From assembly GCA_016840465.1 (NCBI GenBank), contig JAEOSH010000069.1, positions 1-9,751 on the forward strand: a DNA stretch of 9,751 nucleotides. Direction: 5' to 3'. Positions 427 through 9,751 of this stretch are shown here, in pieces. A program made the translations under genes and the position numbers. Source of the stretch: Candidatus Baldrarchaeum yapensis (GTDB lineage: Archaea; Asgardarchaeota; Baldrarchaeia; Baldrarchaeales; Baldrarchaeaceae). Each line of letters opens with the position of its first letter. Within the stretch, counting starts at the first letter, position 1. The notes under the pieces were generated by a model. The model searched no databases. It was not told where the DNA came from and saw only the letters and a program-made list of their open reading frames with translations.

Positions 427-789
427 CTAGGATTTGATTCCTTTTCTCTTGAGGACTTCTTTTATTTTCTTTAGAAGCTCTTCCTTAGCCGATCGATAAA
501 GTTCGAGGGTTTCCTCTATTTCGGGTAAAGTTACGCTCTCGGGCGAATAATCCGCCTTTTTCCTTAGGGCGTAAAGATGTCTGAGCGCCATTGCCGCCGT
601 CAGCAATCCCTTGTTTTCGATGGCATTGGCGAGTTTATCATCTCTTCTGGGGATGCGCTCGTTTAATAGTGTGAGTAGTTCGCATGAGAGTCTATGTAGA
701 GAAAAGTAGAGTGCAGAGGCGCATTTGTTCGCATTTCCCCGTTTAAGATCATCAAATGCCTCTTTTTCTAATCTTCCAGCTTTCTCCAT
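427..789 (-). CDS. HEPN domain protein (COG1895/UPF0332-like, R-x4-Y type)
   Basis: 120 aa, helical; N-terminal 'CASALYFSLH' and C-terminal 'LYALRKKADY' match archaeal HEPN signatures. Overlaps the upstream MNT-like gene by 22 bp. Confidence 0.8.
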   Translation of the reverse strand: MEKAGRLEKEAFDDLKRGNANKCASALYFSLHRLSCELLTLLNERIPRRDDKLANAIENKGLLTAAMALRHLYALRKKADYSPESVTLPEIEETLELYRSAKEELLKKIKEVLKRKGIKS

Positions 790-1397
790 CCGGCAATCAC
801 AAAATTATCTGCAAGCTTTCTATCGCTCACGATGAGGGGGCTTATACTCACGCCGTAGATGCGCTCTACCTCAGCCTCCATCTCGGCAATTGCACGCATC
901 GCCCTCACAAAGTTACCCCTGATTACTACCAATACATTGCTCTCGTAGATCATTGCGTCCTCATCGGGCGCCACAACAACTTCCAGAACTTCATCTCCGA
1001 GGCTTTTCCTGATTTTATTGTAAAACTCTTTCACGGCGGAGATCCAGTCACCAATTTTCACATCCGCCGCCATTTGCGAGCGAATAAAGGAGTTTATGAA
1101 GCCGACATCCTTTTTGCTCACGATGAGGGGGCTTATACTCACGCCGTAGATGCGCTCCACTTCCGTCTCTGCTCTGACAACTGTATGCCTTACCTCAGCG
1201 GAATTCCTCCTAACTATGACTAATACGTTGCTATCGTACACCATTGCTTCTTCGTCAGGCGCCGCAACAACTTCTAAAAGATCATCTCCCAGTTCTTCTT
1301 TTACTCTCTCGAAAAACTCGGTGATTGCAGAAGCCCACTTACTTCCGCTGAGGACTATCGGCAACCTCAGGATCTCCTCTTTAGTGGACGAAACCAT
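768..1397 (-). CDS. Tandem two-domain minimal nucleotidyltransferase (MNT)-like protein, catalytic motifs degenerate
   Basis: Two ungapped repeats 97 codons apart, 43/74 identical aa by hand count. Each reads 'EF...LGD..LEVV.APDE.AM.Y(D/E)SNVLV....EVERIYGVSISPLIVS', which follows the MNT layout, but GS is replaced by AP and DxD by DxN/ExN. ATG 1397 is preferred (GTGGTG RBS); the ORF track starts at GTG 1412. Confidence 0.7.
   Translation of the reverse strand: MVSSTKEEILRLPIVLSGSKWASAITEFFERVKEELGDDLLEVVAAPDEEAMVYDSNVLVIVRRNSAEVRHTVVRAETEVERIYGVSISPLIVSKKDVGFINSFIRSQMAADVKIGDWISAVKEFYNKIRKSLGDEVLEVVVAPDEDAMIYESNVLVVIRGNFVRAMRAIAEMEAEVERIYGVSISPLIVSDRKLADNFVIAGWRKLED
825..1157. repeat. Perfect 42-bp direct repeat, two copies (825-866 and 1116-1157)
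   Basis: gctcacgatgagggggcttatactcacgccgtagatgcgctc occurs twice, 291 bp apart, and encodes ERIYGVSISPLIVS in both MNT-like domains. Confidence 0.97.
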
Positions 1398-1508: not shown

Positions 1509-1537
1509 TATATTTAAATATGCCGATATAAGGATAT
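1509..1537. promoter_or_regulatory. Operator-like motif, copy 1 (ATAT-N4 x4; TATATT-N10-GATATA), overlapping a TATA-like TTTAAATA
   Basis: TATATTTAAATATGCCGATATAAGGATAT has ATAT at 1510, 1518, 1526 and 1534; 22/29 identical to 5303-5331. Confidence 0.65.
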
Positions 1538-1617
1538 ATTAATGTGAGTCTGAGATTTCCCGAGGAGAATCAAGAGGGTGCAAGACGTAAGCAAGGTTGA
1601 ATTATGGGGGATGAATA

Positions 1618-1974
1618 ATAGCTAAAAGTGCCGTTTGGTATCCAGTAATCTTTCCGGATAGATGTGATGGATGCAAAAACCGTGAGGTCCCCAGATGCGT
1701 CGAGTTCTGCCCTCATGGTGTCTTCGGGATACGTGAAGGGAAAGCAGTTGTGCTGAGACCTCAAAACTGTGTATATGGATACACATCATGCGAGTTCATT
1801 TGTCCAAGAAGAGCAATTGCTTTTCCCCAGCATACTATGATCTTTCCCAGGATAAAGAAGGAAGATAAAGGCTTGCTCCGTAAAGTTACATGTAGAATCT
1901 GTGGGAAAGTCTTCTGGACAAACAGAGATGTGGATATATGCTTTGATTGCGAAGCTAAACAAAAGTGTGTATGA
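1618..1974 (+). CDS. Dicluster-type ferredoxin with C-terminal Zn-ribbon (118 aa, probable ATA start)
   Basis: The frame is open from 1615, after TGA 1612-1614: (M)AKSAVWYPVIFPDRCDGCKNREVPRCVEFCPHGVFGIREGKAVVLRPQNCVYGYTSCEFICPRRAIAFP...VTCRICGKVFWTNRDVDICFDCEAKQKCV. GGGGGATGA RBS-like sequence sits just upstream. The track's GTG 1750 start would delete the first Cys motif. Confidence 0.85.
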   Translation: MAKSAVWYPVIFPDRCDGCKNREVPRCVEFCPHGVFGIREGKAVVLRPQNCVYGYTSCEFICPRRAIAFPQHTMIFPRIKKEDKGLLRKVTCRICGKVFWTNRDVDICFDCEAKQKCV

Positions 1975-2406: not shown

Positions 2407-4047
2407 ATGAGTGCGTACAACTATCAGTTGATAATAAAAAATATTCTTGAGTGGGGTGTTAATCGAGCGCCGAACAAGGAGATTGTGTACAGAGACCTAG
2501 TAAGGTACACATGGTCTCAGTTTTATGAGAGGGTGAAGAGGCTTGCGAATGCGCTCGAAGAGCTTGGGGTCAAGAGGGGGACGAAGGTGGCAGTGCTCGA
2601 CTGGGACACGCACAGGTACCTCGAGCTGTACTTTGCTGTTCCCATGATGGGAGCCATACTCCACACCATAAATTTGCGTTTGCCCCCGGAGCACATCCTG
2701 TACACCATGAAGCACGCCGAGGACGAGGTTCTCGTGGTGAGGGACGAGTTCCTTCCGATTGTTGAAAGAGTAAAGGACATGCTTCCAGAGAGTTTGAGGA
2801 CGTTCATAATCACGTCGGATACTGGGACGATGCCAGAAACGAAGTTAGAGCCCGCCTACGACTACGAATCGCTCGTCAAGGAGGCGTCTCCCGACTACGA
2901 GTTCCCCGAACTGGACGAAAACACCGATGCCACAATCTTCTACACGTCCGGAACTACGGGACTCCCAAAGGGAGTGATCTTCACGCATAGACAGATAACG
3001 CTTCACACATTGTGTGTTGCTCTTGTATCCCTATTCCCTGGGGAATTTCATTTAACGTCTCAAGACGTAGTGATGCCACTTGTTCCGTTCTTCCATGTGC
3101 ATTCTTGGGGAATGCCGTATGTCGCAGCACTCCTGGGAACGAAACTCGTTCTTCCTGGAAGGTACGATTGGGATTTGATACTTGAACTCATGCGGAAGGA
3201 GGGCGTCACCTACACCTATTGCGTGCCAACGATTCTTCATGCATTAGTTTATCATCCAAAAGCGGAGGAGTACAGGGACGTGTTTTCAAGGCTGAGAGCG
3301 TCAATTGGAGGCGCAGCTCTTCCAAGGGGATTGGCTTTACGAGCGAGAGAACTGGGAATGAAGGTTACCTCAGGATATGGTCTCTCCGAAACCTGTCCGG
3401 TACTCACGATTTCTGGATACAAGGAGCACATGCTCGACTGGCCGGAGGATAAGAAGCTCGAGGTAAGATTAAAGACAGGATTACCAATTCCACTGGTTAA
3501 ATTGAGAGTTGTTAATGAGAAGGGAGAGGATGTGCCCAAGGACGAAAAGTCAATTGGAGAGATAGTTGTGCGTGCGCCTTGGTGCACGCGTGAGTACTAC
3601 AAGGATCCTGAGAAGACGAAGGAACTGTGGAAGGATGGGTGGTTGCACACAGGCGATCTTGCCGTCTGGGATGAAGACGGATATGTAAAGATCGTCGGAA
3701 GGCTCAAGTTTGTGATAAAGAGCGGAGGGGAGTGGATCTCCCCGCTGATACTAGAAGACCTGTTAAGCACGCATCCCGCGGTCTCCGAGGTTGCAGTGAT
3801 CCCGGTGCCCCACGAGAAGTGGGGAGAGAGACCCATTGCGGTAATAGTTCCGAAGGCCGAGTACAAGGACAAGATCACCGAGGACGATTTGAGAAAATTC
3901 ATGCTGAAGTTGGCCGACGAGGGCAAGGTTGCGAAGTGGTGGATTCCGGACAGGTTCATCTTCACGGATTCGCTTCCGAAGACCGGAACCGGGAAGGTGG
4001 ATGTGCTGAAACTGATAGAACAGTACAAGACACTAAAACTAGAATGA
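2407..4047 (+). CDS. AMP-forming acyl-CoA ligase, AlkK/ttLC-FACS/DmdB-like subfamily
   Basis: 546 aa with YTSGTTGLPKG P-loop, GYGLSET, GWLHTGD, IKSGGEWIS, HEKWGERP and LPKTGTGK. 'DWDTHRYLELYFAVPMMGAILHTINLRL' and 'VPFFHVHSWGMPY' are typical of this subfamily. Substrate is not determinable from sequence. Confidence 0.95.
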   Translation: MSAYNYQLIIKNILEWGVNRAPNKEIVYRDLVRYTWSQFYERVKRLANALEELGVKRGTKVAVLDWDTHRYLELYFAVPMMGAILHTINLRLPPEHILYTMKHAEDEVLVVRDEFLPIVERVKDMLPESLRTFIITSDTGTMPETKLEPAYDYESLVKEASPDYEFPELDENTDATIFYTSGTTGLPKGVIFTHRQITLHTLCVALVSLFPGEFHLTSQDVVMPLVPFFHVHSWGMPYVAALLGTKLVLPGRYDWDLILELMRKEGVTYTYCVPTILHALVYHPKAEEYRDVFSRLRASIGGAALPRGLALRARELGMKVTSGYGLSETCPVLTISGYKEHMLDWPEDKKLEVRLKTGLPIPLVKLRVVNEKGEDVPKDEKSIGEIVVRAPWCTREYYKDPEKTKELWKDGWLHTGDLAVWDEDGYVKIVGRLKFVIKSGGEWISPLILEDLLSTHPAVSEVAVIPVPHEKWGERPIAVIVPKAEYKDKITEDDLRKFMLKLADEGKVAKWWIPDRFIFTDSLPKTGTGKVDVLKLIEQYKTLKLE

Positions 4048-4067
4048 TCTCAGAAACTTCTCGTCCT

Positions 4068-4090
4068 TTTACGATTTTTATTTATTTTCC
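4068..4090 (+). terminator. T-rich archaeal terminator candidate
   Basis: Several T tracts (ttttacgatttttatttatttt) about 20 nt after the ligase stop codon. Confidence 0.35.
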
Positions 4091-4269
4091 GGGATTATTT
4101 CGTAACTTCAGAGGTTAAGCAACCACAATTAAGTGGACAAGAAACAGCGTTAAGAGAAGTCTTCCAGATATAAACATGTTCTTCCCCATCCACTGGCAAG
4201 AAGTCTGTCAAATTTGCAATACTCCACGTATACTGGTGACATGAGCACGATTTCTCGAAAGCTTCGTAG

Positions 4270-4510
4270 TTCTGATCGAAAAACAAGAGATGCATCAGGT
4301 GGGAGAACACAATCCTCGCCCTCACCATGTGCTAGGACCTGCGGAACATCCCATTGAGCCCTAAAAGCTATCCCAGATCCCTGTGCAACTCCTCGAACGC
4401 CCATCAGTTACTCCGGTAATGTAGTGTGGTCCATAAGACATAGGTTTGCACGTCTCCAGTAGCAGTTGAGGATTCCTCCTTCTCCTGTGCATGAGAAGAA
4501 ACCGGATAGC
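4270..4510 (-). pseudogene. Decayed IS4/IS701/ISH3-like DDE transposase C-terminal remnant
   Basis: Minus-strand reading 'IRFLLMHRRRRNPQLLLETCKPMS', then after a frameshift 'HYRSN*WAFEELHRDLG*LLGLNGMFRRS*HMVRARIVFSHLMHLL'. This resembles the Y-x2-R-W-x-I-E-x2-H-R-x2-K catalytic-Glu region; several stops. Boundaries approximate. Confidence 0.45.
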
Positions 4511-4898
4511 TTCATCAAGGTGATTCTTCTTTCAAGTTTTACCGTAATCCGGCACGAACCTCAGCAACTCCCTCTTAACCTCTCACTGATGAACATTGTG
4601 AGAATCACAACACTTTATCGTGGTTGTCCGTGCCTGATCTCTCAGATATTTTGAATATTTTCGGCACGGACTTTCCTTCATAGGGTCAGGTTCTTATCCC
4701 CGCACCGGGAGGATGTCGAGGTACTCATTGGGGGCACCTGTAAAGTAATCAACCATCGCATTGATATGGAGCGGGACGTTTAACGTTCAAGTTAACACTC
4801 TCAGATCGACGCCCGGCTGTGAGTGGAAATGCTAATGTTAAATTTATTATGAAACAGTTTCAAATTTCGCTAAAGGATTTTAAGGCAAGTGTCAGGTG

Positions 4899-5234
4899 TT
4901 AAAAGCGCAAAGCTTTAATGCTTCTACTGATACGTGACACGAGTATTTCTGCCGCCAGATCTAAGATCTTTAAGACGCGAGGATCAGAAATTCTGTAATA
5001 GATTGATCGACCGCGTCTTTCGGCGATCAGGATACCGCTTTCCACCAAGTTCTTAAGATGTTGCGCGACTGTCGACTGCGACCTTCCCGTCGCAGGGATT
5101 ATATCACACTGGCAGATGCTCTCCTCTCCGTGTTCCATTATCACTTTCAATATCTTTAGACGTATAGGATCTGATAATGCTCTAAAGAATCGTGCCATAG
5201 TGTCTAGGAAGCTTTCTTCCATTAAATGATTCAT
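4899..5234 (-). CDS. arsR: ArsR/SmtB family transcriptional regulator with alpha3 CxC motif
   Basis: 'ARFFRALSDPIRLKIL', 'ESICQCDI', 'SQSTVAQHLKNLVESGIL' and 'ERRGRSIYYRI' give a winged HTH. ATG 5234 follows GGGGTG; the track starts at GTG 5243. Confidence 0.93.
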   Translation of the reverse strand: MNHLMEESFLDTMARFFRALSDPIRLKILKVIMEHGEESICQCDIIPATGRSQSTVAQHLKNLVESGILIAERRGRSIYYRISDPRVLKILDLAAEILVSRISRSIKALRF

Positions 5235-5274: not shown

Positions 5275-5302
5275 TACCACAGATTTCCATCTTATGTATT
5301 GG

Positions 5303-5331
5303 TATATCGTAATATGCTGATATATCAATAT
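5303..5331. promoter_or_regulatory. Operator-like motif, copy 2 (TATATC-N10-GATATA inverted repeat; ATAT-N4 x4), probable ArsR site
   Basis: TATATCGTAATATGCTGATATATCAATAT has ATAT at 5304, 5312, 5320 and 5328, and lies in the divergent arsR intergenic region. Confidence 0.7.
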
Positions 5332-5349: not shown

Positions 5350-5949
5350 ATGATGCTTATGCATAGAAAATCCGATAAGAGCCTGCTGAGCCTTCTGATA
5401 GGAAATAAGCTTGTTAGAAATGTAAAAATAAACGAAATACTGCCATGTATTTCCGATAAAGAGAGAATACGTGTTGTATGTCAAGTGGATAGGGAATTAA
5501 CCGATGTGCTTCCAGTGCTCTACCTCTACATTCCGAATGCGACATATAACGAAAGGACTGGTGCACTCACTTTCATGTACAAGCAACACATGATTACGAT
5601 ATTTAAATCGGGGAAAATAACGGGGACATACATGCGCGACCGTAAGGAGGCGGAGCAGATAATGATGGAAGTAAAAGACCTGATAAACAGAGCGATAGTG
5701 TATGTAATGACACACGGTCCCCCCTCTAAAGACTTAATAGCATCGAAGAAACCCGTTTCCGCGTTAACGGTACAAAAGCACCTTCCGGGAACAAACTGTG
5801 GAAAATGCGGAGAGAAGACTTGTTATGCGTTTGCGGTTAAGGTATCCACGGGAGAGAAGGATATTGATGAATGTCCGGAGTTGAAATTGCCTGAAAATCT
5901 GGAAAAGTACCATGAGCTTAGGAAACTACTAAGGCCAATAGTCATCTGA
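5350..5949 (+). CDS. COG4871-like protein: N-terminal TBP-like fold plus C-terminal putative Fe-S domain (PF04060-like)
   Basis: 'PCISDKERIRVV...LTF...MITIFKSGKIT...D..EA' N-domain and 'LPGTNCGKCGEKTCYAFAVKV..GE..IDECPEL' four-Cys domain. Start is probably ATG 5350-5359; the track's TTG 5299 overlaps the operator. Confidence 0.85.
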   Translation: MMLMHRKSDKSLLSLLIGNKLVRNVKINEILPCISDKERIRVVCQVDRELTDVLPVLYLYIPNATYNERTGALTFMYKQHMITIFKSGKITGTYMRDRKEAEQIMMEVKDLINRAIVYVMTHGPPSKDLIASKKPVSALTVQKHLPGTNCGKCGEKTCYAFAVKVSTGEKDIDECPELKLPENLEKYHELRKLLRPIVI

Positions 5950-5952
5950 ACG

Positions 5953-6288
5953 GTGGTACCCTTGCGAATCCTACTGGCAATTACGAAATCCAGTTATCCG
6001 GCAAATCTTCTCTCTCTGATCAAATTATTCATTAGAACCTGTTTCGAGAAGCAACATGCCGTGTCAATGTACTTTCTTGGAGACGGCGTATACGCATTGC
6101 GCCTTTTTAAAGATCTCATAGATGAAGGAGAATCTGGGCTGATAGAGGTTTTTGTGAGAAAGGAGGATGCCGAGGCGAGAGGAGTAACTAAGTTCATTCA
6201 GACAAATCGCGTAAGATTTCCTAAGGACTTCATGAAGCGCTTAGTCATGAGCGTTATGGAGAGAGCGGATAAGGTGGTATTCTTATGA
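5953..6288 (+). CDS. DsrH/TusB-like subunit (DsrE/F/H fold, lacks the catalytic-position Cys)
   Basis: 'MYFLGDGVYAL' and 'EDAEARGV', ending 'ADKVVFL'. Possible TTG start at 5962; ATGA overlap with the next gene. Confidence 0.7.
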   Translation: MVPLRILLAITKSSYPANLLSLIKLFIRTCFEKQHAVSMYFLGDGVYALRLFKDLIDEGESGLIEVFVRKEDAEARGVTKFIQTNRVRFPKDFMKRLVMSVMERADKVVFL

Positions 6289-6671
6289 GTAAAACTCTGA
6301 CAATAGTGCTCCTCAGGGAACCATATGCAAGTCAGTACGCCGATATAGCACTCGAGATCGCAGAGATGGCCTTAAATTTGGGATACAAGGTTCGATTGTT
6401 CCTCTACATGAGTGGGGTACATGCAGCCAAGCGGGGTCAATCGCCGTTGAGATTTCCTAACTTTGAAAGAAAATTGCGGGAACTTTTGACTCGTGGATTG
6501 AAAGTTATCGCATGCGGTAGATGCGCCTCAGCAAGAGGATACATCGAGAATTCTGCAAACGAAGAGGGTAATTTTTCAACATCTCAGTATGTGGAGGGAG
6601 TCAAAGTTATGAGCATATACGAGCTTGCGGATTGGATTAAAAACTCTGACAGGGTAATAATGTTGGGGTGA
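6285..6671 (+). CDS. dsrE: DsrE/TusD-like sulfur-carrier subunit
   Basis: 'LTIVLLREPY', 'LFLYMSGV', 'ACGRCASARG' and 'L..WI..SDRVI'. The first Cys is 8 residues before the G of RG, as for TusD Cys78. Confidence 0.88.
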   Translation: MSKTLTIVLLREPYASQYADIALEIAEMALNLGYKVRLFLYMSGVHAAKRGQSPLRFPNFERKLRELLTRGLKVIACGRCASARGYIENSANEEGNFSTSQYVEGVKVMSIYELADWIKNSDRVIMLG

Positions 6672-6677
6672 TGGGCG

Positions 6678-7034
6678 CTGGAGCCGGAATTGATACTTAT
6701 TCTATCAAAACCGCCTTACGGTAGCGAAGATGTTATCAGTATGCTTTTTATAGCATTAGCGGCGGTATCCCGCGGAATAAAGACTACTATTATTTTAATA
6801 GATGATGGTGTTTACACAGCCTTACGGGATCAGAGGCCGGAGGGGTTAAAATATCCCAGCGTCGAAGATCTCATATACCTGATCATAACCGATGCCGAGA
6901 TCTTCGTTCATGAAGATTCTCTGAAGGAAAGGGGTATCAGCGGAGAGGATTTGATAGAGGGAGTCAATGTTTCATCTGATGACGAAATAGTAGAGGTGCT
7001 TCTCACCAAGACTGGTGCTTTCCTTTTGTGCTGA
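6678..7034 (+). CDS. dsrF: DsrF/TusC-like subunit
   Basis: 'ILSKPPYGS', 'ILIDDGVY' and 'VHEDSLKERGI'. The frame opens after TGA 6671; CTG 6678 fits the GGGGTGA RBS (track start TTG 6690). Confidence 0.85.
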   Translation: MEPELILILSKPPYGSEDVISMLFIALAAVSRGIKTTIILIDDGVYTALRDQRPEGLKYPSVEDLIYLIITDAEIFVHEDSLKERGISGEDLIEGVNVSSDDEIVEVLLTKTGAFLLC

Positions 7035-8935: not shown

Positions 8936-9732
8936 GTCCTTTGTCAAACCCTACACCTCAATCACCCCCGCCACCTATCAGCACGAAGAGGCCGGCCAGC
9001 GCCTCCAGCCTCAGCATCCGCTTAACGTTGTGCGCCGCCGCCCTGAAAACAACAAACGAGGCCACACTCTCAGGATCCCTGTACCGTACCTCCCGAACAC
9101 GGTCGAACACCGCCGCTCCACGCTCACAGTTCTTCCTCCTGCGATACATCCGGGCCGAGAAACCCCCGGCCGCCCGACGAAGAATGCGACACGAAAACAC
9201 GCGCGACGGCCTAACCTGAAAGTCGATGCCCCTCTGAAACGCCTCCACGCAGTTCCCCCTCACGAAAAACTCGCGATCAGCGTAGAGAATCGAACCACGC
9301 GGAATCACACCCATGGCCTCCGAGATGTCCCGCGACCTCGTCGCCCACGCGAACATGTCCACCCCTATGTCGTAGATGAACTTTATGTCGACAACCGCCC
9401 TCGAAAGTACGACCCTCCCCCGCACAAACCTCTCCTCGAGAAACCCCACCGGAACGGCGGTCCCGTCCGCAACGAACTCCTCCGCATCGCCGCACCCCGA
9501 GAGGCCCCGAATGAGTAGGCCCCCCTGACATCTCAACCAGTTCAGGAACTCCAGAACTCACTGCCGGAGGCGGGGGTTCCTGTAGTGGTAGCGCAGAGTT
9601 TCCGCGATCGGGACCCTGTGCCTCGCGTCACCGGAAACCCTCATGTCGATCCCGGCCTCGATTGCGCGCCCCCTTATACCTTTGAAGCTGATGGGCTGTG
9701 GGGACATTTCCTTCAGGATCAGGAGGGCTACC
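8936..9732 (-). mobile_element. IS5-like insertion sequence, truncated by the contig end
   Basis: Visibly GC-richer than the flanks and carries a DDE transposase. Candidate terminal IR GTCCTTTGTCAAACCC (8936-8951) resembles IS903-group ends, but the partner end is not in the window. Confidence 0.7.
8958..9732 (-). pseudogene. DDE transposase (IS5-like) with one in-frame TGA at 9558-9560
   Basis: Track ORFs 9558-9749 and 8958-9536 are the same frame, joined by TGA-VLEFLNWL. Catalytic triad: 'FVADGT' (D), 'ILYADREF' (D), 'YRRRKNCERG' (E); ends with 'AAAHNV'. Confidence 0.8.
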
Positions 9733-9751
9733 CTGTCTCTTATACACATCT
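9733..9751. other. Tn5/Nextera mosaic-end adapter (library artefact)
   Basis: Exact CTGTCTCTTATACACATCT forms the last 19 nt of the window. Confidence 0.98.

Follow-up and report, generated by a model that had tools for sequence, protein, structure and literature searches.

Does a short sequence that stands in front of two different genes mark them as targets of the same repressor? The question is raised by a 9,751-nucleotide contig of Candidatus Baldrarchaeum yapensis (the whole of which is called the window below), where a stretch upstream of a ferredoxin gene (1509-1537) resembles a stretch 3.8 kb away, beside a gene for an ArsR/SmtB-type repressor (5303-5331). The original prediction took the two as copies of one operator and the ferredoxin as a member of the ArsR regulon. 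We asked how rare this sequence is, what else it accompanies, and which of the neighboring genes it could control.

A periodic ATAT array in two intergenic regions

Direct comparison bears out the likeness: the two 29-mers are identical at 22/29 positions (18/22 over the first 22), both carry ATAT at offsets +1, +9, +17 and +25, that is, with a period of 8 bp, and both contain a TATAT(T/C)-N10-GATATA inverted repeat. Site A (1510-1545) consists of exact units at 1510, 1518, 1526 and 1534 followed by a degenerate fifth unit, ATTA, at 1542, and site B (5296-5331) of exact units at 5304, 5312, 5320 and 5328 preceded by a degenerate GTAT at 5296; neither is assigned to a strand. The identity ends sharply on both sides, with no match in the 20-bp flanks, and therefore no duplicated segment is involved. 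As the ATAT units supply 16 of the 22 identities, while the remaining 13 positions match at 6, the signal is a periodic array together with a short common core, ATATGCNGATATA. Both predicted copies are thus real, but two things had been missed: the genome holds a third array (on contig C91), and site B lies inside a 34-bp palindrome (5297-5330) centered on its second unit, at 5312, the 12-nt arms of which (5297-5308 and 5319-5330) are 92% complementary and form a 12-10-12 inverted repeat. An Rfam search of the window gave no match.

Site A is located in a 217-bp divergent region between a leftward gene (768-1397, minus strand) and the ferredoxin (1615-1974, plus strand), 113 bp away from the start of the former; on the other side, the ATA at 1615 is 78 bp off. 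Site B occupies a 115-bp region between the ArsR gene (4899-5234, minus strand) and an Fe-S/Dsr operon (5350-7034, plus strand), and 19 bp separate its end from the ATG at 5350. Site A also includes a TATA-box-like octamer, TTTAAATA (1513-1520), which is absent from site B; nevertheless, a TATA-like sequence is found in or abutting each of the three genomic arrays (TTTAAATA in site A, GATATATC at site B and GTATATATCC at the third, site C), just upstream of the rightward genes.

In a frequency scan of the host genome (G000; 2.27 Mb, 100 contigs, 46% G+C) that had been proposed beforehand, the array proved to be rare and not a common feature of AT-rich DNA. Exact ATAT-N4-ATAT-N4-ATAT-N4-ATAT occurs three times, at sites A and B and at C91:3864-3891, and four-unit arrays at the other periods from 5 to 12 are absent from this genome. 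When one mismatch is allowed (15/16), the only additional period-8 matches are A and B themselves moved by one unit. Exact three-unit arrays number seven at period 8, as against 0-2 at other periods, and six of these seven fall within sites A, B and C. The best genome-wide match of site A is site B (with one tie) and vice versa. No such array was found in the scan upstream of the acyl-CoA ligase gene, as the original prediction had remarked.

Could A and B be alike by simple coincidence, both being in AT-rich intergenic regions that contain TATA? The bulk of the identities does come from an AT-only 4-bp unit, the remainder matching at fewer than half of the positions, and rare matches are expected from a large scan over many windows. 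Against this, among 6000 random pairs of host intergenic regions of the same sizes as the A and B regions, only 0.05% reach at least 22/29 (P = 0.0005) and 0.2% reach the same segment score; the excess at period 8 in the host genome (3 vs 0) points the same way, as does the independent recurrence of this period beside ArsR homologues in other lineages (10 vs 0, see below). We thus consider a coincidence highly improbable, and this explanation close to refuted.

Two further loci of the host genome carry arrays. Site C (contig C91, 3856-3899, with the four-unit array at 3864-3891) is built of two 16-bp direct repeats, CCATATGRRTATATAT. The 89-bp region in which it stands separates two divergent genes, one unknown (386 aa) and the other for an archaeal ATPase (PF01637) that carries a TrmB-like winged helix; the ATG of the latter is 21 bp from the end of the site. 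The other locus, C21:6178-6197, has an exact three-unit array inside a near-perfect palindrome, GCAAATATTGGAATATGTAAATATTTGC (6172-6199; L107 3673-3700); some 500 bp separate it from a tRNA gene downstream, in a gene-poor stretch that offers no clear target, and it is possibly background.

Recurrence of the array beside ArsR homologues

The repressor of the window is a winged-helix protein of 111 aa (PF01022 HTH_5, E=3.3e-11, 43.3 bits against a cut-off of 22). Its helix 3 contains the C-x-C of As(III)-type ArsR proteins (ESICQCDII), and the cysteines of this CQC are its only ones. The host genome encodes 28 HTH_5-like proteins; this ArsR is the only one of its clade, and no arrays are found at the remaining HTH_5-like genes. 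Arrays scoring 11/12 near a second ArsR-like gene, on contig C67, were rejected: they lie inside coding sequence and the protein lacks a CxC.

Looking for the array upstream of orthologues gave a two-sided outcome. An identical ArsR occurs on 15 contigs, all from strains more than 99% identical in which the sites are invariant, so footprinting by close orthologues is uninformative, and relatives between 55% and 100% identity were absent from the collections searched. Distant homologues did carry the array. Our sample was the 29 ArsR homologues with the best E-values (34-55% identity) in 400 same-phylum genomes, with no other criterion of choice; nearly all of them keep CQC or CVC in helix 3. 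At period 8, the 88.8 kb around them hold 10 exact three-unit arrays; each of the periods 6, 7, 9, 10, 11 and 12 gives zero. At 6/29 loci in four genera (L076, L077, L086/L090/L092 and L088), an exact array precedes the ArsR start by no more than 150 bp, compared with 0/29 at each of the six control periods (best score 11/12), and four more loci have upstream arrays scoring 11/12. The genomes concerned contain only 2-6 such arrays per 1.9-4.2 Mb; by our own arithmetic, the chance of meeting one in a given 150 bp is about 2-4 x 10^-4 per genome, or some 10 times higher if only intergenic DNA is counted.

Like the window, some homologue loci (L088 and L103) contain a second array, there at a distance of about 1 kb. 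At L088/L126 (G009:C71, 49593-49640), this second array, of 5-6 units, is separated by about 1.1 kb from the one near ArsR and lies between convergent gene ends. More generally the picture in the relatives is mixed, because three-unit arrays are also found at a few unrelated places, for example at convergent gene ends or in coding sequence. In genome G315, whose ArsR homologue also has an array, one array is upstream of another small winged-helix gene, and a four-unit array (L115, G315:C4, 1768-1803) is located 31 bp upstream of a 357-aa gene that resembles an ArsP/permease on the mere appearance of its sequence; a gene resembling a TauE/SafE exporter, on the same ground, is nearby. The ArsP/permease-like gene is a possible remote regulon member in this relative.

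What recurs in the relatives is a run of three consecutive ATATs (20 bp), with spacers that are neither conserved nor symmetric. An ATAT reads the same on both strands, which makes direct and inverted repeats indistinguishable here. The interleaved dimers of the original prediction (units 1+3 and 2+4) were a guess; the three-unit run and its free spacers suggest instead that the TpA-rich units would be read by shape or flexibility and not as base-specific half-sites. The recognition helices of ArsR dimers normally lie 10-11 bp apart, the spacing of the major groove, and a period of 8 bp is unusual in this respect.

The motif could be real and yet have another reader: it might be a core-promoter element, made of tandem or bidirectional TATA boxes bound by TBP/TFB, or the site of a different factor. 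The octamer TTTAAATA, a good archaeal TATA box, is present in site A and in the sites of Bathyarchaeia, L113 and L142, and a TATA box is as long as one period; moreover, the ATPase-fused winged helix encoded next to site C differs from ArsR and could bind the adjoining array, and one G315 array stands in front of another small winged-helix gene. However, a four-unit array is found upstream of only three of the approximately 2,200 G000 genes, and is thus no general promoter feature; site B lacks the octamer altogether; the arrays, at 20-36 bp, are longer than a TBP site; and they recur beside ArsR genes whose other neighbors differ. We regard a reader other than ArsR as unlikely. Most probably, judging from this distribution, the period-8 ATAT array is the operator of the CxC-type ArsR clade.

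Candidate target genes at sites A and B

The operon facing site B encodes an Fe-S protein (PF04060; 5350-5949) followed by DsrH-like (5953-6288), DsrE (6285-6671) and DsrE/F-like (6690-7034) proteins, all on the plus strand and divergent from ArsR, and is the presumed target of this site. The same layout recurs in family f8 (G010, G020, G136), where a DsrH/E/F-like trio is transcribed away from the ArsR homologue and the region between them conserves a AATATATTAATAT block. In other genera, the ArsR neighbor is a GcvH/LbpA-like or another redox gene, and orthologues of the Fe-S protein (35-47% identity) occur mostly in other contexts. Autoregulation is uncertain, since site B is placed some 25 bp beyond the likely arsR TATA.

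At site A the presumed target is the ferredoxin, a 2x[4Fe-4S] protein with a C-terminal Cys4 ribbon, whose upstream region thus holds one of the only three four-unit arrays of the genome. Its reading frame lacks ATG, GTG and TTG as possible starts and opens with ATA ATA after a TGA (1612-1614), with the Shine-Dalgarno-like GGGGGATGA before it, and the likely start is the ATA at 1615, which fits the N-termini of 34 homologues (53-75% identity, 112-135 aa). Five independent assemblies agree fully on the sequence, although no gene caller reports it in the five strain contigs.

Ferredoxins recur in ArsR-divergent units of two other lineages. In Bathyarchaeia (L070-L074), the gene for a 95-aa ferredoxin, 37% identical to that of the window over 70 residues (E=3e-11), is divergent from an ArsR gene (44% identity). 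The region between these genes has diverged except for two long invariant blocks, each with ATAACAATATTTAAAT and one before each gene; the ArsR-proximal copy consists of three ATAT units at period 8 and has the 12-mer ATATTTAAATAT in common with site A, a 12-mer that site A shares with the ArsR-proximal sites of three other lineages in all. At L142/L143, in a metagenomic lineage, a CVC-type ArsR (41% identity) is divergent from an operon of thioredoxin-like, ArsP, small ORF and ferredoxin genes; this ferredoxin is 58% identical to that of the window, and the 83-bp intergenic region has four period-8 units. Seven distinct contexts of ferredoxin homologues were compared, and arrays scoring at least 11/12 at any period other than 8 were absent from these loci. 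Several contexts are of the arsenic type: L112 has ArsR and an ACR3-like permease; L113 an ArsM-like methyltransferase, a CVC-type ArsR preceded by the palindrome GTAGCAATATTTAAATATTGCTAC, and an ArsC of the LMW phosphatase type; L139 an ArsC-type gene, a methyltransferase and DGC genes. The array accompanies the ferredoxin or its operon at L142/L143 and in the Bathyarchaeia, and is absent at L112, L113 (upstream of the ferredoxin), L139, L140 and L109/L111, the last being the closest homologue (75% identity). In ten relatives with ArsR arrays, a search for the ferredoxin gave two weak matches, neither with an array. The link between ferredoxin and ArsR is therefore recurrent but not universal.

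ArsR might also bind site A without controlling the ferredoxin, acting instead on the leftward genes (a pair of 209 aa and 120 aa), or the site might be non-regulatory or decaying. The 209-aa gene (768-1397), a tandem duplicate, is the alternative target, and the array stands in a divergent region from which both genes start. Gene decay may also affect the ferredoxin, given that it lacks a canonical start, a view with which its omission by the gene callers would agree; its nearest homologue has no array; and the linkage of A and B varies among strains. On the other hand, the leftward gene appears to have a TATA-like box of its own, TTAATTAT (1424-1431), a putative promoter far nearer its start than the array. 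The ferredoxin frame is intact, preceded by its Shine-Dalgarno-like sequence, unchanged between assemblies and of the same length as in homologues, and related ferredoxins lie in ArsR-divergent units elsewhere. A role for site A that leaves the ferredoxin aside thus seems improbable to us. Its place in the regulon, as originally proposed, finds backing in the site A array and in the two lineages described above and is weakened by its arrayless closest homologue; on balance, the ferredoxin is probably a member of the predicted ArsR regulon.

The variable linkage is visible at position 4291, where the contigs of five other assemblies of the species start or end exactly; beyond it, one of them (L062) continues into different sequence with PIN, MazE-like and PaREP1 genes. 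Linkage of the ferredoxin/ligase block to the ArsR block is consequently not shared by all strains. An 850-bp stretch (4048-4898) has no convincing gene. At the other end of the window, strain contig L058 aligns only to 9732, and the terminal 9733-9751 reads CTGTCTCTTATACACATCT, which we take to be a Nextera transposase adapter, so that these final 19 bases probably do not belong to the genome. Beside this contig end, an ORF on the minus strand (8958-9536), overlapped by a plus-strand ORF, has a weak DDE_Tnp_1 transposase match (E=2.5e-5) and is likely an IS remnant.

A predicted operator and its relation to known systems

How could the array work? We propose that a row of period-8 ATATs (three to five units, 20-36 bp) would be the docking site of an ArsR/SmtB clade marked by C-x-C in helix 3. 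The sole host member of this clade, protein 4899-5234, would bind site B, site A and probably the C91 array and, since the arrays contain or abut TATA-like sequence, the bound repressor would block TBP/TFB at the rightward genes. A ligand at Cys41/Cys43, arsenite-like or sulfane sulfur, would then release it. In this scheme we infer ArsR binding, promoter occlusion, the inducer and the control of the ferredoxin from site A. An assumption that the promoters are leaderless was dropped: host upstream profiles dip in Shine-Dalgarno fashion between -13 and -8 and lack a TATA peak at any fixed distance, and hence TATA assignments are not secure and are to be read as provisional. Taken as a whole, from the clade and its three host sites to ferredoxin control, the TBP/TFB block and release by a ligand, the scheme appears reasonably probable to us.

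The nearest known operators are the 12-2-12 imperfect inverted repeats of SmtB, CzrA and CadC, together with that of the R773 ArsR. The window's system resembles these in having a small winged-helix repressor with a C-x-C in helix 3 and an AT-rich symmetric site in the repressor's own divergent promoter region. There are, however, key differences: (i), the TGAA...TTCA core of the 12-2-12 consensus is absent from sites A and B, and only ATAT recurs, every 8 bp and three to five times, with unconserved, asymmetric spacers; (ii), the setting in the window is an archaeal TATA/BRE promoter. By its sequence, protein 4899-5234 looks like an ordinary ArsR/SmtB member, and it is its predicted operator that departs from the consensus. 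The window has no ars efflux or reductase genes and the host genome no ACR3/SBF match.

Among archaeal regulators, MDR1, Phr, TrmB/TrmBL1 and LrpA are repressors that occlude TATA/BRE, and the mechanism proposed here is of the same type: a bacterial-type repressor placed on or beside the TATA box of the gene that it controls. These proteins belong to other families and bind other palindromic sites; to our knowledge, none has been described with an 8-bp periodic ATAT array. A literature search for an ATAT/8 operator likewise found no description.

The functionally closest systems are bacterial: SoxR and sHdrR of Hyphomicrobium denitrificans (compare SqrR/BigR), ArsR-type repressors responsive to sulfane sulfur that occupy more than one intergenic region within a single sulfur island, where dsrE, tusA and lbpA genes are under their control (PMC12423496, PMC10451225). 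Relatives of the window ArsR similarly adjoin DsrEFH-like and GcvH/LbpA-like genes. SoxR and sHdrR have their cysteine pair in helices 2 and 5 (PMC12423496, PMC10451225), whereas the window ArsR lacks that pair and has the CQC only; the likeness drawn here concerns the genes controlled.

Next to nothing is known of the regulons of uncultured archaea. If an operator is countable, can be checked against other spacings and stands beside one ArsR clade across families and phyla, it would predict which genes respond together. Here the array ties an Fe-S/DsrHEF-like module and a ferredoxin-Zn-ribbon family, both of unknown role, to each other and to arsenic-type clusters. We tentatively go one step further, on ground that we hold to be a little less than even: the ATAT/8 array, read mainly via DNA shape or flexibility and less by contacts to bases, might be a shared operator code of the CxC-type ArsR clade in at least two archaeal phyla, marking an undescribed arsenic/thiol-stress regulon (a DsrEFH-like carrier with its Fe-S protein, ferredoxin-Zn-ribbon, ArsP and thioredoxin-like proteins) that could be predicted from sequence in uncultured archaea. 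Because a period of 8 bp is odd for a winged-helix dimer, this protein-DNA pair would be a worthwhile structural target.
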